From the NCBI RefSeq assembly GCF_055900595.2, contig NZ_CM148325.1: a stretch of DNA of 64,000 bases; one strand, written 5' to 3'. This document shows positions 31,196-45,894 of this stretch, piece after piece. The notes below the pieces were generated by a model. It saw nothing but the letters and a program-made list of their open reading frames with translations, made no database searches and had not been told where the DNA came from. A program made the translations under genes and the position numbers. The number at the start of each line of letters is the position of its first letter. Position 1 is the stretch's first letter.

Positions 31196-31912
31196 ATGCG
31201 TCCAGCAGGCCGTAGCAATAATCAGGTGCGTCCCGTTACCCTGACTCGTAACTATACAAAACATGCAGAAGGCTCGGTGCTGGTCGAATTTGGCGATACC
31301 AAAGTGTTGTGTACCGCCTCTATTGAAGAAGGCGTGCCGCGCTTCCTGAAAGGTCAGGGCCAGGGCTGGATCACCGCAGAATACGGTATGCTGCCGCGTT
31401 CTACTCATACCCGTAATGCCCGTGAAGCGGCGAAGGGTAAGCAGGGCGGCCGCACGATGGAAATCCAGCGTCTGATCGCTCGTGCATTGCGCGCCGCAGT
31501 AGATTTGAAAGCCCTCGGTGAGTTTACTATTACGCTGGACTGCGACGTACTTCAGGCTGATGGCGGCACCCGCACTGCTTCTATCACCGGTGCTTGTGTT
31601 GCACTAGCCGATGCCCTGAATAAACTGGTTGAAAATGGCAAGCTGAAAACCAACCCGATGAAAGGGATGGTAGCCGCGGTTTCTGTCGGGATTGTGAACG
31701 GCGAAGCGGTTTGCGATCTGGAATACGTTGAAGACTCTGCCGCTGAAACGGACATGAACGTGGTGATGACCGAAGACGGGCGCATCATTGAAGTGCAGGG
31801 AACGGCGGAAGGCGAGCCGTTTACCCATGAAGAGCTACTCACCTTGTTGGCGCTGGCCCGAGGGGGAATCGAATCCATTGTAGCGACGCAGAAGGCGGCG
31901 CTGGCAAACTGA
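31196..31912 (+). CDS. rph: ribonuclease PH (apparently full-length, 238 aa)
   Basis: From [30 protein letters not shown]; reads through to a C-terminus ending ...ATQKAALAN just before the pyrE attenuator. Confidence 0.9.
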
Positions 31913-31919
31913 TTTTTAA

Positions 31920-31945
31920 GGCGACTGATGAGTCGCCTTTTTTTT
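31920..31945 (+). promoter_or_regulatory. pyrE attenuator (intrinsic terminator hairpin + U-tract between rph and pyrE)
   Basis: GGCGACTGATGAGTCGCC hairpin followed by TTTTTTTT, 30 nt upstream of the pyrE start. Confidence 0.65.
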
Positions 31946-31977: not shown

Positions 31978-32619
31978 ATGAAACCATATCAGCGCCAGTT
32001 TATTGAATTTGCGCTTGGCAAGCAGGTATTAAAGTTTGGCGAGTTTACGCTGAAGTCCGGGCGCAAAAGCCCCTATTTCTTCAACGCCGGGCTGTTTAAT
32101 ACCGGGCGCGATCTGGCACTGTTAGGCCGTTTTTACGCTGAAGCGTTAGTGGATTCCGGCATTGAGTTCGATCTGCTGTTTGGCCCTGCTTACAAAGGGA
32201 TCCCGATTGCCACCACAACTGCCGTGGCGCTGGCGGAGCATCATGACCTGGACCTGCCGTACTGCTTTAACCGCAAAGAAGCAAAAGACCACGGTGAAGG
32301 CGGCAATCTGGTTGGTAGCGCGTTACAAGGACGCGTAATGCTGGTGGATGATGTGATCACCGCCGGAACGGCGATTCGCGAGTCGATGGAAATTATTCAG
32401 GCCAATGGCGCGACGCTTGCTGGTGTATTGATTTCGCTCGATCGTCAGGAGCGTGGTCGCGGCGAGATTTCGGCAATTCAGGAAGTTGAGCGTGATTACA
32501 ACTGCAAAGTGATCTCTATCATCACCCTGAAAGACCTGATTGCTTATCTTGAAGAGAAGCCGGAAATGGCGGAACATCTGGCGGCGGTTAAGGCCTATCG
32601 CGAAGAGTTCGGCGTTTAA
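31978..32619 (+). CDS. pyrE: orotate phosphoribosyltransferase
   Basis: 213 aa from [13 protein letters not shown]; PRPP-binding motif [13 protein letters not shown]. Confidence 0.9.
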
Positions 32620-32690
32620 AAATATGCGCTGCGCAGGTTTTTACTGTGCGCAGCGTGATGCGGTTTAAGATATCGTGTTAATCTGCTTTC

Positions 32691-32883
32691 GCCAGCAGTG
32701 GCAATAGCGTTTCCGGCCTTTTGTGCCGGGAGGGTCGGCGAGTCGCCGACTTAACGCCAGTAGTTTGTCCAGATACCCAAAGTCGCTCCATTGTACTTAA
32801 GTACGCTTCGCGTACGTCGCGCTGACGCGCTCAGTACAGTTACGCGCCTTCGGGATAGTTTGAGGGTATTGCCGCTGTTGGTG
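32691..32883 (+). ncRNA. retron msr-msd region (template/primer RNA for msDNA), bounded by a1/a2 inverted repeats
   Basis: a1 GCCAGCAGTGGCAATAGC (32691-32708) pairs with a2 GGTATTGCCGCTGTTGGT (about 32865-32882) at 17/18 positions when G-U pairs are allowed; internal palindromes (GTACGC-TTC-GCGTAC) fit an msd stem; lies immediately 5' of the RT gene. Confidence 0.6.
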
Positions 32884-32915
32884 CCTCTTTTGGTCGCCGT
32901 GATGTGGAGAGTGGA

Positions 32916-33875
32916 ATGGATGCTACCCGGATAACCCTTCTGGCGCTTGATTTGTTCGGCTCGCCGGGCTGGAGCGCCGATAAAGAAATACAGCGGCTGT
33001 ATGCGCTCAGTAATCATGCCGCACGCCATTACCGACGGATTATTCTTTCTAAGCGTCACGGCGGTCAGCGGGTGGTGTTAGCCCCTGATTACTTGCTCAA
33101 AACCGTACAGCGCAACATTCTTAAGAACGTCCTTTCACAATTCCCTCTTTCCCCTTTTGCTACCGCCTACCGACAGGGTCGCCCAATCGTCAGCAACGCG
33201 CAGCCTCACTGCCAACAGCCGCAGATCCTTAAACTCGATATCGAAAACTTTTTCGATAGCATTAGCTGGTTACAGGTCTGGCGTGTGTTTAGCCAGACCC
33301 AGTTGCCACGCAATGTGGTAACCATGCTGACCTGGCTTTGTTGCTATAACGACGCGTTACCGCAGGGGGCGCCAACTTCGCCTGCCATTTCCAATCTTGT
33401 GATGCGCCGTTTTGATGAGTGCATAGGGGAATGGTGTCAGGCTCGGGGAATTACCTACACCCGCTACTGCGATGACATGACCTTTTCTGGTCACTTCAAT
33501 GCCCGCCAGGTTAAAAATAAAGTATGCGGATTGTTAGCGGAGCTGGGCCTGAGCCTCAATCAACGCAAAAGTTGCCTGATAGCTGCCTGTAAGCGCCAGC
33601 AGGTAACCGGGATTGTTGTTAATCACAAGCCACAGCTTGCCCGTGAAGCGCGCCGGGCGCTGCGTCAGGAAGTACACTTGTGCCAAAAATATGGCGTTAT
33701 TTCGCATCTTAGTCATCGTGGTGAACTTGATCCTTCTGGCGATCTCCACGCACAGGCAACGGCGTATCTTTATGCTTTGCAGGGAAGAATAAACTGGTTA
33801 TTGCAAATCAATCCTGAGGATGAGGCCTTTAAACAGGCGAGGGTGAGTGTAAAGCGAATGCTGGTGGCATGGTAA
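32916..33875 (+). CDS. retron-type reverse transcriptase (Ec107-like, 319 aa)
   Basis: RT motifs LPQGAPTSPAISNL and YTRYCDDMTF (YxDD catalytic box) plus retron-specific VTG motif (QQVTGIVVNHKP); 319 aa if started at MDATRITL; located between pyrE and slmA. Confidence 0.85.
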   Translation: MDATRITLLALDLFGSPGWSADKEIQRLYALSNHAARHYRRIILSKRHGGQRVVLAPDYLLKTVQRNILKNVLSQFPLSPFATAYRQGRPIVSNAQPHCQQPQILKLDIENFFDSISWLQVWRVFSQTQLPRNVVTMLTWLCCYNDALPQGAPTSPAISNLVMRRFDECIGEWCQARGITYTRYCDDMTFSGHFNARQVKNKVCGLLAELGLSLNQRKSCLIAACKRQQVTGIVVNHKPQLAREARRALRQEVHLCQKYGVISHLSHRGELDPSGDLHAQATAYLYALQGRINWLLQINPEDEAFKQARVSVKRMLVAW

Positions 33876-33918
33876 GAAAAGCGTCAGGCAGACGTTTCTG
33901 CCTGAACGTTTGGGAGAA

Positions 33919-34515
33919 TTACTGCAACTGCGCAGCAATTAGCGGCCAGCGGGCGTCAAAGTCATCCGTCGGGCGGTATTTAAACTCGCTGCGGACAAAG
34001 CGTGACAGCATACCTTCACAGAAGGCCAGGATCTGGCTTGCCAGCAGGGTTTCGTCGGTGGTGTAACCTTCACCCTCACGCATTCTCTTTTCACGCAATA
34101 CCTGACGCAACTGCGCTTCAATACGCTCGAATAGCTGGTTGATGCGCCCTTGCAGGCGATCCTGTTCAAACATTAGTGCATGACCAGTGAGGATGCGGGT
34201 CAGGCCAGGATTACGCTCACCAAAACCGAGAAGCAGCAACACAATCAGACGCAGGCGCGCTGTGGTGTCTTTCTCATCTTTCAGAATCAGATTGATGCGA
34301 GTAATCAGGCTATCTTCGATAAACTCAATCAGGCTATCGAACATGCGGGTCTTACTGGGGAAGTGGCGATACAGTGCCGCTTCGGAAACGCCGACAGAGG
34401 CGGCCAGTTTTGCCGTCGTGATACGTTGGCTTCCATCGCTGGATTCCAGCATCAGCGCCAGAGACTGAAGTATTTCCTCGCGACGGTTCCTTTTCGCAGT
34501 TTGTTTTTCTGCCAT
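33919..34515 (-). CDS. slmA: nucleoid occlusion factor SlmA (TetR family)
   Basis: 198 aa from [20 protein letters not shown]; TetR HTH. Confidence 0.9.
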
Positions 34516-40468: not shown

Positions 40469-40819
40469 AGTAAATAGCTGACTTATGGATGTGCTGGGGA
40501 TTCTATGTATTTAGCTGTGGCTTTACCATTACTTTTCCCGTTTTTGACTTAAATAGCAATTTACCCACCAATTCTTGCTGAACATCTATACTTTTTTTGT
40601 ATTTTTATGCGATTCATTGATTTCCGCAGTACGTGCAGTAAGGAATCGCGGAGCAACAGTGAAAGAATATTGTTGCTAATGATTTTATTTGATTGATTTC
40701 TTTATTGAAAAACAACGATGTGCTTAAAAATCATTCGGATCGGATTGCCGCGAAAGAAGTGATACACTAGCGCGTCAATATCAGTACGGTATCAGTATTC
40801 AGGTAGCTGTTGAGCCTGG

Positions 40820-40831
40820 GGCGGTAGCGTG
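40820..40831 (+). promoter_or_regulatory. ops element (GGCGGTAGCGTG) within a JUMPStart-like leader upstream of waaQ; RfaH recruitment site
   Basis: Exact ops core GGCGGTAG-CGTG on the non-template strand about 50 nt upstream of the waaQ start. Confidence 0.7.
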
Positions 40832-40880: not shown

Positions 40881-41939
40881 GTGGATAAGCCATTTCGAAG
40901 AATTTTGCTCATTAAGATGCGTTTTCATGGGGATATGTTATTAACTACTCCTGTCATTAGTTCGCTGAAAAAAAATTACCCTGACGCAAAAATCGATGTG
41001 CTGCTTTATCAGGATACCATCCCGATTCTGTCTGAAAATCCAGAGATTAACGCGCTCTACGGCATAAAAAATAAAAAAGCAAAAGCCTCAGAGAAAATTT
41101 CCAACTTTTTTCATCTCATCAAGGTATTACGTGCCAATAAGTATGACCTTATCGTCAATCTTACCGATCAATGGATGGTTGCTATACTGGTTCGCTTATT
41201 AAATGCCCGTGTGAAAATTTCCCAGGATTATCATCATCGGCAGTCTGCTTTTTGGCGTAAAAGCTTCACCCATCTGGTGCCGTTGCAGGGTGGAAATGTG
41301 GTGGAAAGTAACTTATCCGTGCTGACGCCACTGGGTCTCGAATCGTTGGTGAAGCAGACAACGATGAGTTACCCGCCTGCAAGCTGGAAACGAATGCGTC
41401 GCGAACTGGATCACGCAGGTGTTGGACAAAATTATGTGGTTATCCAACCTACCGCGCGGCAAATCTTCAAATGCTGGGACAACGCCAAGTTTTCCGCTGT
41501 GATTGATGCCTTACATACACGTGGCTATGAAGTCGTTCTGACGTCCGGCCCGGATAAAGACGATCTGGCCTGCGTCAATGAAATTGCGCAGGGATGCCAG
41601 ACGCCACCAGTAACGGCGTTGGCCGGAAAGGTAACCTTCCCGGAACTTGGTGCGTTAATCGATCATGCGCAGCTGTTTATTGGCGTTGATTCCGCACCGG
41701 CGCACATTGCCGCTGCAGTTAATACGCCGCTGATATCGCTGTTTGGTGCAACAGACCATATTTTCTGGCGTCCCTGGTCAAATAACATGATTCAATTCTG
41801 GGCGGGAGATTACCGGGAAATGCCAACACGCGATCAGCGTGACCGAAATGAGATGTATCTTTCGGTTATTCCGGCGGCAGATGTCATTGCTGCTGTTGAT
41901 AAATTATTGCCATCCTCCACGACAGGTACGTCGTTATGA
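40881..41939 (+). CDS. waaQ: LPS heptosyltransferase III (GT9)
   Basis: GT9 heptosyltransferase; first gene of the central waa operon; start uncertain (GTG at 40881 or ATG at MRFHGD). Confidence 0.85.
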   Translation: MDKPFRRILLIKMRFHGDMLLTTPVISSLKKNYPDAKIDVLLYQDTIPILSENPEINALYGIKNKKAKASEKISNFFHLIKVLRANKYDLIVNLTDQWMVAILVRLLNARVKISQDYHHRQSAFWRKSFTHLVPLQGGNVVESNLSVLTPLGLESLVKQTTMSYPPASWKRMRRELDHAGVGQNYVVIQPTARQIFKCWDNAKFSAVIDALHTRGYEVVLTSGPDKDDLACVNEIAQGCQTPPVTALAGKVTFPELGALIDHAQLFIGVDSAPAHIAAAVNTPLISLFGATDHIFWRPWSNNMIQFWAGDYREMPTRDQRDRNEMYLSVIPAADVIAAVDKLLPSSTTGTSL

Positions 41940-43060
41940 TCGTTGCTTTCTGTTTATATAAATATTTTCCCTTTGGCGGTTTGCAACGCGATTTTATGCG
42001 TATTGCTCAGACAGTTGCGGCCCGAGGGCATCATGTTCGGGTTTATGCCCAGTCATGGGAAGGCGAATGCCCTGATGTGTTTGAACTGATCAACGTGCCG
42101 GTTAAGTCGCATACCAATCACGGGCGTAACGCGGAGTATTTTGCCTGGGTGCAAAAACATTTACGCGAGCATCCGGTCGATAAAGTCGTTGGATTCAACA
42201 AAATGCCGGGGCTGGACGTTTATTATGCCGCTGATGTTTGTTATGCCGAGAAAGTGGCGCAGGAGAAAGGCTTTTTCTATCGCCTGACGTCACGTTATCG
42301 CCATTATGCCGCCTTTGAGCGGGCAACCTTTGAACAGGGCAAGCCGACACAGTTGCTGATGCTGACGGACAAGCAAATCGCCGATTTCCAGAAACATTAT
42401 CAGACTGAAGCGGAGCGTTTTCATATTTTGCCTCCGGGGATTTATCCTGACCGTAAATATAGCCAGCAGCCAGCCAATAGCCGTGAAAGCTTTCGTAAGA
42501 AAAATGGAATAACAGAACAACAATATTTATTGTTGCAGGTCGGTTCAGACTTCACGCGTAAAGGTGTCGATCGTTCCATTGAAGCACTTGCTTCGCTCCC
42601 GGATTCACTGCGCCACAACACATTGCTATATGTTGTTGGGCAGGATAAACCGCGAAAATTTGAGGCACTGGCAGAAAAACGCGGCGTGCGCAGTAATGTT
42701 CACTTCTTCTCTGGGCGTAACGATGTCTCGGAATTAATGGCGGCGGCGGATTTATTACTGCATCCTGCCTACCAGGAAGCGGCGGGAATTGTGCTGCTGG
42801 AAGCGATTACTGCAGGATTACCGGTTCTAACAACTGCTGTTTGTGGTTATGCGCATTATATTGTTGACGCGAATTGCGGCGTGGCTATTGCTGAGCCATT
42901 CCGTCAGGAAACATTGAATGAGTTTTTACGCAAAGCGTTAACGCAATCTTCATTGCGCCAGGCCTGGGCGGAAAATGCGCGACATTATGCTGATACACAA
43001 GATTTATACAGTCTGCCAGAGAAAGCGGCGGATATCATAACGGGTGGTCTGGATGGTTGA
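41936..43060 (+). CDS. waaG: LPS core alpha-1,3-glucosyltransferase I (GT4)
   Basis: 374 aa; GT4 family; ATGA overlap with waaQ stop. Confidence 0.9.
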
Positions 43061-43850
43061 ACTGAAAGAGCCGTTTGCCACGTTATGGCGCGGTAAAGAT
43101 CCTTTTGAGGAAGTTAAAACCTTGCAGGGTGAGGTATTTCGTGAACTGGAAACTCGCCGCACTCTGCGCTTTGAAATGGCGGGCAAAAGCTATTTTCTCA
43201 AATGGCATCGCGGCACGACCCTGAAAGAGATAATCAAAAATTTACTCTCATTGCGGATGCCAGTATTAGGTGCAGACCGTGAATGGAATGCGATTCATCG
43301 GCTGCGGGATGTCGGCGTTGATACTATGTATGGGGTGGCATTCGGCGAAAAAGGCATTAATCCGCTGACCAGAACTTCGTTTATTATTACCGAAGATCTG
43401 ACGCCAACTATCAGTCTGGAAGATTACTGTGCTGACTGGGCGACTAACCCACCAGATGTCCGCGTAAAGCGTATGCTTATTAAACGTGTCGCGACGATGG
43501 TGCGCGATATGCATGCTGCGGGCATTAACCACCGTGACTGTTATATCTGTCATTTCCTGCTGCACTTGCCTTTTTCTGGTAGGGAAGATGAGTTAAAAAT
43601 TTCAGTAATTGACCTGCACCGGGCGCAGCTTCGCACGCGCGTTCCACGTCGTTGGCGCGATAAAGATCTTATTGGGCTTTATTTTTCTTCGATGAATATT
43701 GGCCTGACTCAGCGTGATATCTGGCGATTTATGAAGGTATATTTTGCCGTACCGCTTAAAGACATACTCAAGCAGGAACAAGGGCTGCTGTCGCAAGCAG
43801 AAGCAAAAGCCACGAAAATCAGGGAAAGAACGATTAGAAAATCGTTGTAA
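43053..43850 (+). CDS. waaP: LPS core heptose(I) kinase
   Basis: 265 aa from [12 protein letters not shown]; kinase-like motif ([11 protein letters not shown]). Confidence 0.9.
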
Positions 43851-43865
43851 TTTCCGGAGAGAAAT

Positions 43866-44882
43866 ATGAGTGCCCACTATTTTAATCCACAAGAGATGAT
43901 CAATAAGACAATCATCTTCGATGAAAGGCCAGAGGCGTCAGTGGCATCATCATTCCATGTTGCTTATGGCATTGATCAGAACTTTCTTTTTGGTTGTGGT
44001 GTTTCAATCACGTCAGTTTTGTTACATAACAACGACGTGAGTTTTGTCTTCCACGTTTTTATTGATGATATCCCTGACGCCGATATCCAGCGTTTATCCC
44101 AATTGGCGAAAAGCTATCATACCTGTATCCAGATCCATCTGGTAAATTGTGAACGGCTTAAGGTATTACCGACGACCAAAAATTGGTCTATTGCCATGTA
44201 TTTCCGTTTTGTAATTGCAGATTACTTTATTGATCAACAAGATAAGATCCTGTACCTGGATGCTGATATCGCCTGTCAGGGAACCTTAAAACCGCTGATA
44301 ACAATGGATCTTGCCAATAACGTTGCTGCTGTTGTTACTGAACGCGATGCTAACTGGTGGTCGTTACGGGCTCAAAGTCTGCAGTGTAATGAACTTGAAA
44401 AGGGTTACTTTAATTCAGGTGTCCTGTTAATTAATACACTAGCGTGGGCGCAGGAGTCCGTTTCTGCTAAAGCGATGTCGATGCTTGCTGATAAAGCCGT
44501 CGTTTCCCGTTTAACCTATATGGATCAAGATATACTAAATCTTATCCTGTTAGGGAAAGTTAAATTCATTGATGCTAAATACAATACGCAATTTAGTTTA
44601 AATTATGAATTAAAAAAATCATTTATTTGTCCAATTAATGATGAAACCGTATTAATTCATTATGTCGGCCCGACAAAACCTTGGCATTACTGGGCCGGTT
44701 ATCCAAGCGCGCAGCCATTTATCAAAGCCAAAGAAGCATCGCCATGGAAAAATGAACCGTTAATGCGGCCAATTAACTCAAATTATGCTCGTTATTGCGC
44801 TAAGCATAATTTTAAACAAAATAAACCAATTAACGGGATAATGAATTATATTTATTATTTTTATTTAAAGATAATAAAATGA
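43866..44882 (+). CDS. waaO: LPS outer-core alpha-glycosyltransferase, GT8 family (WaaO/WaaI-like)
   Basis: 338 aa; GT8 DxD motif YLDADIACQG; AT-rich. Confidence 0.7.
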   Translation: MSAHYFNPQEMINKTIIFDERPEASVASSFHVAYGIDQNFLFGCGVSITSVLLHNNDVSFVFHVFIDDIPDADIQRLSQLAKSYHTCIQIHLVNCERLKVLPTTKNWSIAMYFRFVIADYFIDQQDKILYLDADIACQGTLKPLITMDLANNVAAVVTERDANWWSLRAQSLQCNELEKGYFNSGVLLINTLAWAQESVSAKAMSMLADKAVVSRLTYMDQDILNLILLGKVKFIDAKYNTQFSLNYELKKSFICPINDETVLIHYVGPTKPWHYWAGYPSAQPFIKAKEASPWKNEPLMRPINSNYARYCAKHNFKQNKPINGIMNYIYYFYLKIIK

Positions 44883-44898
44883 CATTGAGAAAAGTTAA

Positions 44899-45894
44899 AT
44901 GAATGAATTTATAAAAGAACGGTTTTCGTATTTAGCAGATAATAAAAAAGAAAACGTCCCAGAGCTAAATGTTTCCTACGGTATCGATAAGAATTTTTTG
45001 TATGGTGCTGGCGTTTCAATTTCTTCCGTTTTGATTAATAATTCAGATATTAATTTTGTCTTTCATGTTTTCACTGATTATGTGGATGATGATTATTTAA
45101 AGTCATTTGATGAAACAGCAAAACAATTTAATACCTCAATTATTGTATATTTAATTGACCCAAAATACTTTGCTGATCTGCCGACGTCACAGTTTTGGTC
45201 GTACGCGACATACTTCAGGGTATTGTCCTTTGAATATCTGAGTGAAAGTATTTCCACACTGCTGTATCTGGATGCCGATGTCGTTTGTAAAGGAAGTCTG
45301 AAACCTCTCACAAAAATTATATTTAAAGATGAGTTTGCTGCGGTTATTCCTGACAATGATAGTACTCAGGCGGCATGTGCAAAACGTCTTAACATTCCCG
45401 AAATGAATGGACGTTATTTCAATGCAGGCGTTATCTATGTCAATCTTAAAAAATGGCATGAAGCAAATTTGACACCGTATTTACTCACGCTTTTACGAGG
45501 GGAAACTAAATATGGCTCTCTTAAATATTTAGATCAGGATGCGTTGAATATCGCATTTAATATGAATAATATCTACCTCGCGAAGGATTTTGATACTATT
45601 TATACCCTGAAAAACGAACTTCATGATCGTAGTCATCGAAAGTATCAGCAAACCATTACCGATAAAACAGTATTGATTCACTATACAGGGATAACTAAAC
45701 CATGGCATAGCTGGGCTGGATATCCGTCTGCATCATACTTTAATATCGCGCGTGAACAATCTCCCTGGAAGAAATATCCTCTTAAAGAGGCGCGGACTGT
45801 TGCAGAAATGCAGAAACAATATAAGCATCTGTTTGCCCATGGTGAGTATATAAAAGGCATAACTTCATTAATTAAGTACAAGCTTAAGAAATAA
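44899..45894 (+). CDS. LPS outer-core alpha-glycosyltransferase, GT8 family (WaaT-like position)
   Basis: 331 aa; GT8 motif YLDADVVCKG; position between waaO and waaY as in R1/R4 core loci. Confidence 0.6.
   Translation: MNEFIKERFSYLADNKKENVPELNVSYGIDKNFLYGAGVSISSVLINNSDINFVFHVFTDYVDDDYLKSFDETAKQFNTSIIVYLIDPKYFADLPTSQFWSYATYFRVLSFEYLSESISTLLYLDADVVCKGSLKPLTKIIFKDEFAAVIPDNDSTQAACAKRLNIPEMNGRYFNAGVIYVNLKKWHEANLTPYLLTLLRGETKYGSLKYLDQDALNIAFNMNNIYLAKDFDTIYTLKNELHDRSHRKYQQTITDKTVLIHYTGITKPWHSWAGYPSASYFNIAREQSPWKKYPLKEARTVAEMQKQYKHLFAHGEYIKGITSLIKYKLKK

Follow-up and report, generated by a model that had tools for sequence, protein, structure and literature searches.

The 64,000-nt stretch of DNA analyzed here (the window) very probably carries, at positions 32621–33917, an intact allele of Retron-Eco5 (retron Ec107), a minimal two-part retron that consists of an msr–msd noncoding RNA (ncRNA) and a reverse transcriptase (RT) and is chromosomally fixed between pyrE and slmA. 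In an element of this kind, the RT and the folded RNA jointly produce a short single-stranded DNA (msDNA). The element is already known, having been described in 1992 at exactly the pyrE–slmA site, and this allele is present in genomes sequenced previously, including that of E2348/69, so that the identification in itself adds little. Ec107 is, in addition, the sole experimentally validated Escherichia coli retron without an effector, and it was omitted from phage-defense tests (Millman et al. excluded it). A natural carrier of the window allele is well suited to finding out what a retron does without an effector, because the locus has two states, the occupied site recurs in other genera, both the RNA and the protein are under strong purifying selection, and the msd is conserved across phyla.

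The insertion at the pyrE–slmA site

Two core genes, both outside the element, form its edges. On the left lies pyrE, encoding orotate phosphoribosyltransferase (31978–32619, plus strand, stop codon 32617–32619), and on the right slmA, formerly ttk, encoding a nucleoid occlusion factor (33919–34515, minus strand); both were assigned from their ORFs and from annotation, for pyrE that of RefSeq in a 99.9%-identical genome. The pyrE–slmA spacer of MG1655 is 36 nt long, contains the hairpin CGCCGGATGAAAAGTCATCCGGCG, and has in common with the window just its first and last A (window 32620 and 33918). Therefore, exactly 34 nt were replaced, and the whole inserted element measures 1297 bp (32621–33917, plus strand). 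A review likewise states that in Retron-Eco5 (Ec107) a palindromic 34 bp of the intergenic region is replaced and that its RT has a YCDD box (PMC6868368), and Mestre et al. describe Ec107 as adjoining the orotate phosphoribosyltransferase gene (PMC7736814). The retron Ec107/Retron-Eco5 is attributed to Herzer, Inouye & Inouye 1992, as that work is cited in the review (PMC6868368).

These comparisons bear on several statements of the initial annotation. Its statement on the site and on a replaced palindrome agrees with both publications and with the MG1655 spacer, and its proposal of an Ec107-like retron between the convergent pyrE and slmA genes is upheld by the match of the RT to the RT_Ec107-like profile, by the site, and by a fold with covariation. 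It had delimited the element as 32620–33918, which gave the pyrE and slmA edges correctly but took in A32620 and A33918, both common to K-12. It was also right that the strain is not K-12, because the site in K-12 is empty.

Two hairpins lie near the ends of the insert. The first, an inverted repeat just 3′ of the pyrE stop (32627–32655), has a perfect 9-bp stem (CGCTGCGCA/TGCGCAGCG) and an 11-nt loop; four of its pairs show compensatory changes in an alignment of nine enterobacterial lineages, and a T-run lies beyond it on the minus strand only. This hairpin is probably a terminator or boundary element. The second (33884–33905), found by a terminator scan, has a 9-bp stem with five GC pairs and the minus-strand tail CGCTTTTCTT. 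It is the terminator common to the convergent RT and slmA transcripts, and only the minus (slmA) strand shows a clear T-run. No mobility genes or repeats flanking the element were found among the ORFs or in a repeat search of the window.

The E. coli locus is strictly two-state. Among 5426 genomes examined, 5424 have pyrE and the locus; 381 of these contain the retron (∼7% carriers) and 5043 have the empty site. Without exception, the 381 full-length copies are chromosomal and occur once per genome. The msr–msd of the window belongs to the minority E2348/69 type, being 100% identical to the E2348/69 allele, so that the initial annotation must be corrected in one respect: comparison with the 042 type shows that this ncRNA is not the published allele. 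Against the majority, published-type (E. coli 042-type) allele, identity over the ncRNA region is 94.6%, and between a1 and a2 (32690–32883) there are 10 substitutions but no insertion or deletion. The RT gene has a mosaic structure: it matches that of E2348/69 exactly up to 33086 and is ∼5% divergent beyond that point. The primers that Kong et al. (PMC8563936) labelled Ec107 correspond to the 042-type allele of E. coli at pyrE–slmA, and their RT primers encode an MDATRTT... N terminus and ...KRMLVAW. Compared with Ec107/Eco5, the window element thus has the same site (pyrE–slmA(ttk), at the cost of 34 bp of the K-12 spacer), a 319-aa YCDD RT, the same msr–msd architecture and length, and no accessory gene, but is an allelic variant by virtue of the 10 ncRNA substitutions and the mosaic RT gene.

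The noncoding RNA and its predicted msDNA

An extended −10 promoter-like element, TG-T-TAATCT (32676–32684, plus strand), was recognized by reading the sequence and by conservation: the pattern TGnTAnnCT is kept in nine of nine lineages, and the sequence upstream of it is variable, with indels. A simple sigma-70 scan upstream of the msr called no promoter. The extended −10 would place the start of transcription near 32690–32692, and one transcript beginning at ∼32690 would then include the msr, the msd, and the RT gene.

The 206-nt ncRNA region folds at −90.4 kcal/mol, compared with −69.4 ± 4.1 kcal/mol for shuffled sequences (z = −5.1), and none of 200 shuffles folds as well. In both the minimum free energy and the centroid folds, the 5′ arm of the closing helix, a1 (32690–32706, plus strand), pairs with the 3′ arm, a2 (32867–32883, plus strand), the latter also being evident as an inverted repeat. 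The best register by folding is a continuous 17-bp helix between these two segments. The initial annotation had paired a1 at 32691–32708 with a2 at about 32865–32882; its count of 17 of 18 pairs, with G-U pairs included, is correct, but at the DNA level the complementarity is 14 of 18 and the register given here is better. The folding check that it proposed yielded a stem that is both stable and covarying.

Support for the fold also comes from other bacteria. Of the cells in the nine-lineage alignment, 97.7% are paired, and compensatory changes occur at 11 pairs, compared with 1–4 in slid controls; one such pair in the a1/a2 helix, at columns 102:270, is GC or AU in a 5:4 ratio. The a1/a2 helix is not a chance repeat, because compensatory changes keep it in other lineages. 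A covariance model built from the nine lineages found matches in 38 other species (E < 1e-5), lying immediately 5′ of the RT gene in the same orientation and nearly all of them full-length. Helices 1 and 2 are 90–95% paired across 57 sequences, and 62 of 64 pairs covary in the covariance-model set, the alignment of which is fitted to the model. Across lineages, conservation is higher in the ncRNA than in the RT. At either of two thresholds, no retron or group II intron family of Rfam matched the region; near it, Rfam gave only a spurious lncRNA match and a weak RyhB-like one that falls on a terminator hairpin.

At the end of the a1/a2 helix, G32707 lies unpaired opposite G32866 in the fold. 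The position of the branching guanosine in Ec86 is well established, and by analogy G32707 (plus strand, UAG*C context with the asterisk after the G), which is invariant in the nine lineages (ATAG), is predicted to be the branching guanosine, the 2′-OH of which would prime cDNA synthesis. The msr, the RNA part, extends approximately from 32690 to 32765 (plus strand) and folds into two hairpins, 32711–32731 and 32732–32752. Both hairpins show compensatory changes (columns 113:128 and 136:148), and the second contains the motif GCGAGTCGC, which is conserved across phyla. The 3′ end of the msr was placed from a reported RNA length of 75 nt and is therefore a predicted one.

The msd (32759–32865, minus strand) is the template of a predicted 107-nt msDNA; it was delineated by DNA folding and covariation, with ends that follow from the length of 107 and the priming geometry of Ec86. 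The predicted msDNA is the reverse complement of the msd, 5′-CCTCAAACTATCCCG...ACTACT-3′, and folds into a branched stem that encloses two mini-hairpins. Its DNA fold has an energy of −20.8 kcal/mol (z = −3.1), and the msd helices covary both in the nine lineages and in the 57-sequence set. Two of the four pairs of helix 6, the basal helix of the msd stem, are broken in the window. The geometry is compatible with 107 nt of DNA and a 6–7 bp RNA–DNA overlap, the msDNA ends being predicted ones. The core sequence of the msd is conserved between Proteobacteria and Firmicutes.

These features suggest how the cassette might work. Pairing of a1 with a2 would present G32707 at the helix end, and the RT would bind the msr hairpins and prime from the 2′-OH of this residue. 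The msd would then be copied leftwards, from ∼32865 to ∼32759, and trimming of the template by host RNase H1 would leave a branched RNA–DNA molecule with a DNA part of ∼107 nt (msDNA-Ec107). In the literature on Ec107, the length of the msDNA depends on RNase H, and a 2′-5′ phosphodiester bond between msDNA and RNA is reported for Ec107, as distinct from the window allele (PMC6868368). From the intact and selected state of the cassette, it is reasonable to infer that the window allele produces msDNA.

The reverse transcriptase

The RT gene (32916–33875, plus strand) is an ORF that begins with ATG and encodes 319 aa; the same start codon is annotated by RefSeq in the 99.9%-identical genome. Six nucleotides before it lies a Shine–Dalgarno sequence, GGAG (32906–32909, plus strand), which is invariant in the nine lineages. 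The YCDD and VTG motifs that the initial annotation had read in a 319-aa RT are present at residues 184–187 and 230–232, and a third motif, NAQPH (NAxxH, region X), occupies residues 94–98. All three, NAxxH, YCDD, and VTG, are invariant among 29 RT relatives.

The best PADLOC profile for the protein is RT_Ec107-like, with a full-length match of 440 bits (6.9e-133), and the runner-up model, RT_III-A, scores ∼128 bits below it (313 bits, 7e-94). The Pfam match is RVT_1 (3.8e-21). The RT is identical at 305 of 319 positions (96%) to Q05804_ECOLX, which is presumably the Ec107 RT, deposited in 1992; a literature search on the accession Q05804 found nothing relevant. All of the closest solved structures are retron RTs (1e-39 to 1e-22), Ec86 being first (1.2e-39). 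With Ec86/Eco1, a type II-A retron with solved RT–msDNA–effector complexes (e.g., 7v9u), the window retron has in common this closest solved RT, the a1/a2 closure, the predicted branch G in a UAGC context, and the presumed 2′-5′ priming logic; in contrast to Ec107, Ec86 has an effector protein and a prophage location. Type III-A retrons resemble the window retron in that theirs are the next closest RT models, and according to Mestre et al. both belong to RT clade 2 (PMC7736814). They differ in that the type III-A RT is linked to PRTase-like and winged-helix proteins (Mestre et al. 2020), neither of which accompanies the window cassette. The sole PRTase near the window retron is the housekeeping pyrE product.

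The RT is under strong purifying selection. Its dN/dS ratio is 0.08–0.22 across the lineages compared, and none of the lineages examined has a disrupted ORF, not even where synonymous sites are saturated, as in the four most distant lineages (pS 0.71–0.74, with a corrected dS that is >2 or not computable). An Escherichia cryptic clade, Pseudocitrobacter, and other Enterobacteriaceae have relatives, with 68–87% RT identity, at the same position. At this shared pyrE–slmA site, the divergence of the cassette rises with that of the host among Enterobacteriaceae genera.

The missing effector and the role of the cassette

Tripartite defense retrons have a linked effector (Millman, Mestre), and the window cassette has none, which is the known exception of the Ec107 branch. 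Between pyrE and slmA, the ORFs show no gene besides that of the RT, leaving ncRNA and RT only. Ten immediate neighbors resemble ordinary cellular genes, seven of them matching NCBIfam housekeeping families, and PADLOC gave no match for any of the 10. No effector gene was found with the cassette in 80 species, and no neighbor family is common to more than 8 of the 80 loci. This agrees with Mestre et al. 2020, who found no effector with Ec107-branch retrons (PMC7736814). Two recurrent ORFs were considered and rejected: a 366-aa downstream gene common to six Mollicutes/Bacilli MAG loci is the housekeeping ATPase YchF, and antisense ORFs inside the RT gene, which recur in 43 loci, are a by-product of RT conservation.

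Because both the RT and the ncRNA are under purifying selection, the cassette evidently does something. Our best guess is that this clade is a stand-alone cassette, unlike the tripartite defense retrons, and that the msDNA–RT complex itself is the functional product. A more specific reading, of rather low probability, is that the Ec107-like cassette has been domesticated and is passed on mainly by vertical descent, with the msDNA–RT complex as its working product in place of the usual tripartite defense. Consistent with this reading are the same site in several genera, with divergence that rises with that of the host, the purifying selection, the conservation of the msd core in Firmicutes, and the lack of a partner gene. 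The role of such a domesticated cassette could be tied to starvation, stationary phase, or nucleotide metabolism; higher Ec107 expression under starvation and in stationary phase has been reported (PMC6868368).

Alternatively, the cassette could belong to a normal tripartite defense retron, the effector of which is encoded elsewhere, with the msDNA–RT restraining a toxin until phage infection frees it. Every other tested E. coli retron works with an effector, the purifying selection on RT and ncRNA implies a working cassette, and effectors in trans are raised as a possibility by Mestre et al. (PMC7736814). However, the cassette lies among unrelated housekeeping genes throughout the 80 species, and a partner would need to be conserved, or recruited anew, across phyla. 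In addition, the msd of defense retrons is usually variable, unlike the strongly conserved msd found here. According to Mestre et al. (PMC7736814), moreover, most hosts of orphan retrons are without homologues of known retron-associated proteins. We therefore regard an effector in trans as unlikely.

It is very improbable that the pyrE phosphoribosyltransferase serves as an effector in cis, as PRTase-like proteins do in the sister type III retrons, even though RT_III-A models are the next best in PADLOC and Mestre et al. put the Ec107 branch beside RTs linked to PRTase-like genes (PMC7736814). All Enterobacteriaceae relatives found (68–100% RT identity) lie directly downstream of pyrE, an adjacency that we explain by shared descent of a single insertion. 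Indeed, the core gene pyrE is all but universal in E. coli and the retron is confined to the 381 carriers, K-12, with its empty site, and the retron carriers 042 and E2348/69 all encode the same PyrE protein (WP_000806177.1), and neither pyrE nor any shared gene adjoins the cassette in Leminorella, in Budvicia, or at the other 76 loci, which are mostly from Firmicutes and Mollicutes. A literature search on retron and pyrE found no papers.

Equally hard to sustain is the idea that the cassette merely happens to persist at pyrE–slmA, as a relic without function or as purely selfish DNA. The low carriage among E. coli genomes would fit such an idea, as would the literature covered, in which no phenotype has been established. 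Against it stand the uniformly intact ORF with its low dN/dS even at synonymous saturation, an ncRNA whose conservation exceeds that of the RT and whose helices are kept by compensatory changes, and the lack of flanking mobility genes or repeats.

Finally, it is scarcely credible that the RT is of another class (group II intron, DGR, or Abi/DRT-type) with an incidental fold upstream: although RVT_1 is common to all these classes, the top 25 PADLOC matches are all retron RT models, solved non-retron RTs score far more weakly than the retron structures (group II intron RT, 2.3e-7; Drt2, 1e-6), Rfam matched neither a group II intron nor another RNA family, and the 319-aa protein has no maturase or endonuclease domain but does have the retron-specific NAxxH and VTG motifs. 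The profile search that the initial annotation had put forward as a check thus places the RT with retron models and structures and well away from group II intron RTs.

The retron at the pyrE–slmA junction

The gap between the stop codons of pyrE (plus strand, ending at 32619) and the convergent slmA (formerly ttk; minus strand, ending at 33919) spans 1299 nt and contains a single long ORF with ~300 nt of non-coding DNA 5′ of it. The gene order matches the RefSeq annotation of a 99.9%-identical genome, which reads rph, pyrE, "reverse transcriptase family protein," slmA, dut, and coaBC. In K-12 MG1655 the empty pyrE–slmA spacer is 36 nt long (AGAAACTCGCCGGATGAAAAGTCATCCGGCGTCATA), with an obvious hairpin, and its only bases in common with the window are the first and last A. 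Thus, 34 of the 36 nt have been replaced by 1297 nt (32621-33917). Together with the RT profile match and the ncRNA fold described below, this replacement bears out the initial annotation, which had placed an Ec107-like retron between pyrE and slmA and had correctly stated that the strain is not K-12. Retron-Eco5 (Ec107) is described as an element with a YCDD box that "replaces a palindromic 34 bp in an intergenic region," where signs of mobile elements are absent (PMC6868368); the window element resembles it in both the 34-nt replacement and the YCDD box.

The ORF (32916-33875, plus strand) has an ATG start with GGAG ahead of it and encodes 319 aa; RVT_1 is its sole Pfam domain. The best PADLOC match, spanning the full protein, is to RT_Ec107-like (6.9e-133, 440.7 bits); RT_III-A comes second (312.7 bits), and the top 25 matches are all retron RT models. 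The best relatives of known structure are also retron RTs, with Ec86 first (1.2e-39), then Ec83, Ec78, Ec67, Kva2, and Eco8, whereas among non-retron structures a group II intron RT is far weaker (2.3e-7) and Drt2 scores 1.3e-6. The motifs NAQPH (residues 94-98), YCDD (184-187), and VTG (230-232) are invariant across 29 aligned relatives. The profile match and the motif positions confirm the retron-type RT of 319 aa, with YCDD and VTG motifs, that had been called from the sequence. The protein is identical at 305 of 319 positions to the cluster member Q05804_ECOLX, which we take to be the original Ec107 RT entry.

A hairpin at 32627-32655 directly follows the pyrE stop codon, and compensatory changes keep it in all nine lineages of enterobacterial retron carriers. 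Its T-run is on the minus strand only, not downstream of pyrE, so pyrE transcription may read through past the hairpin and into the retron.

The ncRNA and its predicted msDNA

The fold of 32685-32890 reaches −90.4 kcal/mol, compared with −69.4 ± 4.1 for shuffled sequences (z = −5.1), and not one of the 200 was as stable. Its arms, a1 and a2, close in a continuous 17-bp helix (32690-32706 with 32867-32883) that includes three G-U pairs, and in the predicted fold G32707 is unpaired and faces G32866. The initial annotation had paired 32691-32708 with 32865-32882 at 17 of 18 positions when G-U pairs are counted; this count is correct and the helix itself stands, but the exact register is one or two bases off that of the fold. 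Two hairpins of the msr, the RNA part (32711-32731 and 32732-32752), have a long branched stem 3′ of them (32770-32862).

The ncRNA regions of relatives can be aligned from a TGnTAnnCT element to just 3′ of a2, with a mean column identity of 87%. In the nine-lineage alignment 97.7% of cells pair, and both sides have changed in 11 pairs, compared with 1-4 in controls with partners displaced by one to three columns; the compensatory changes are located in a1/a2, both msr hairpins, the msd stem, and the hairpin after pyrE. In 38 further species, including Leminorella, Budvicia, and many gut Firmicutes, a covariance model made from the nine-lineage sequences has a match (E<1e-5) on the RT strand and directly 5′ of the RT, and nearly all matches are full-length. 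Compensatory change is seen at 62 of 64 pairs in the model alignment, where 88.7% of cells pair, although fitting to the model biases this alignment toward the structure. Sequence conservation across phyla includes the motif GCGAGTCGC of msr hairpin 2. The msd core CTGCTCC..GTAC...GCACA...TGTGC...GTACA (window 32776-32855) is likewise conserved between Enterobacteriaceae and gut Firmicutes (alignment A4). As the msd of retrons is usually variable, its retention across phyla hints at constraint on the msDNA sequence itself.

The anatomy of the element and established retron biochemistry together suggest how msDNA would arise. Transcription would start near 32690, with an extended −10, and a1/a2 pairing would expose G32707, the putative branch position. 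The 2′-OH of G32707 would prime the RT, which would copy the msd, the msDNA template, from about 32865 down to about 32759; RNase H1 would then remove the template, leaving a 107-nt msDNA linked to ~75 nt of RNA, the two 3′ ends hybridized over 6-7 bp. Without RNase H1, the length of Eco5 RT-DNA is reportedly altered. The predicted msDNA folds as a stem enclosing two mini-hairpins (−20.8 kcal/mol, z = −3.1). The strain likely makes msDNA.

A mosaic allele and its history

Of 5426 complete E. coli genomes, 381 carry the element, as one chromosomal copy each, and 5043 have the K-12-type empty junction. No genome with the locus (5424 in total) falls outside these two groups, so the site is two-state; no other insertion was found in the spacer among them. 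Compared with the window, the ncRNA region is ~94.6% identical in 364 copies and at least 99% identical in 13, including E2348/69 at 100%. The Ec107-labelled primers of Kong et al. (PMC8563936 supplement), ACTTAACGCCAGTAGTATGTCCAT and the complement of ATGGTTTAATGGTATTGCCGCTG, fit the majority, E. coli 042-type allele instead of the window, so that the window ncRNA is a minority allele; their RT primers specify the residues MDATRTT... and ...KRMLVAW that Q05804 and 042 also carry. From a1 to a2 the two alleles differ by ten substitutions and zero indels, and the msDNA should therefore be of the same length in both.

Over 32548-33086 the window matches E2348/69 exactly; this interval takes in the end of pyrE, the entire ncRNA, and the initial 170 nt of the RT gene. 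In the next interval, 33087-33868, the two differ at 41 sites. This sequence pattern implies a recombination breakpoint within the RT gene. The element is a known retron, here with an E2348/69-type ncRNA allele and a recombinant RT gene. The last 200 nt of pyrE (32420-32619) are at least 99% identical in 8 of the 5424 genomes and 90-97% identical in the remainder; the lineage of the host is sparsely sampled, and its nearest genomes come from human stool isolates, E200086 (Mali) among them.

Relatives of the RT with 68-87% identity occupy the same site in an Escherichia cryptic clade, another Enterobacteriaceae lineage, two metagenomic lineages, and Pseudocitrobacter (loci L003/L004, 6001-6960; L083, 4001-4963; L086, 4001-4963; L090, L091, and L092). 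Mestre et al. (PMC7736814) found only 2 of 59 branch members beside a phosphoribosyltransferase (PRTase) gene. The Pseudocitrobacter RT ORF runs 4 nt into the 3′ end of slmA. The cryptic-clade carriers of the 87%-identical retron contain a phage-type integrase just beyond yicC (L086, 1-1102; L087, 1-1101), where the window and K-12 have ligB/yicG. Relative to the window, RT dN/dS ranges over 0.14-0.22 among E. coli copies and over 0.08-0.12 among the more distant lineages with a computable value; two others are too saturated at synonymous sites to yield one. The dS values for RT and pyrE are 0.13 and 0.11 in E. coli 042 (slmA not computed), while those for RT, pyrE, and slmA are 0.57, 0.25, and 0.29 in the cryptic clade and >2, 0.85, and 1.04 in Pseudocitrobacter faecalis. 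RT dS and flanking-gene dS thus increase together, which fits long residence of the retron at pyrE–slmA with a faster clock; the retron may also have spread by recombination through the conserved pyrE/slmA flanks.

Neighboring genes and other features of the window

No linked effector emerged from the gene neighborhoods of 80 species: in the 4.5 kb around the RT, the only protein family to recur in more than 8 loci is the RT itself, and the neighbors vary in size and orientation. None of ten immediate neighbors has a PADLOC match; NCBIfam assigns seven of the same ten to ordinary families and leaves three unmatched, the named ones including adenylate cyclase (Leminorella), CdaR (Budvicia), YchF, a MATE transporter, and a U32 peptidase family protein. 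Ec107 adjoins the orotate phosphoribosyltransferase gene, as Mestre et al. (PMC7736814) describe, but pyrE is unlikely to be the effector, given that distant clade members have no adjacent PRTase and that the same PyrE protein (WP_000806177.1) is shared by K-12, whose site is empty, and two carriers, 042 and E2348/69. Ec107 was omitted from the phage tests of Millman et al., and its expression reportedly rises in phosphate starvation and stationary phase (PMC6868368). A natural carrier of the retron provides a clean system for asking what effector-less retrons do.

Between rph and pyrE (31900-31945), a GC-rich hairpin is followed by eight T (GGCGACTGATGAGTCGCCTTTTTTTT). Rfam gives it a weak, sub-threshold RyhB-like match (24.5 bits), and we take it to be the pyrE attenuator position and not an sRNA. 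selC (tRNA-Sec; 5267-5357, minus strand), a well-known insertion hotspot, shows no integrated island at its direct flanks in the window, which are, on one side, a sugar efflux gene of the SetB/SetC type (3439-4623) and, on the other, transporter and alpha-xylosidase genes of the yicJ/yicI type (5593-9360). A JUMPstart element (40793-40831, plus strand, 55.2 bits) precedes a run of same-strand ORFs (40881-45894) that is probably the LPS core (waa) operon.
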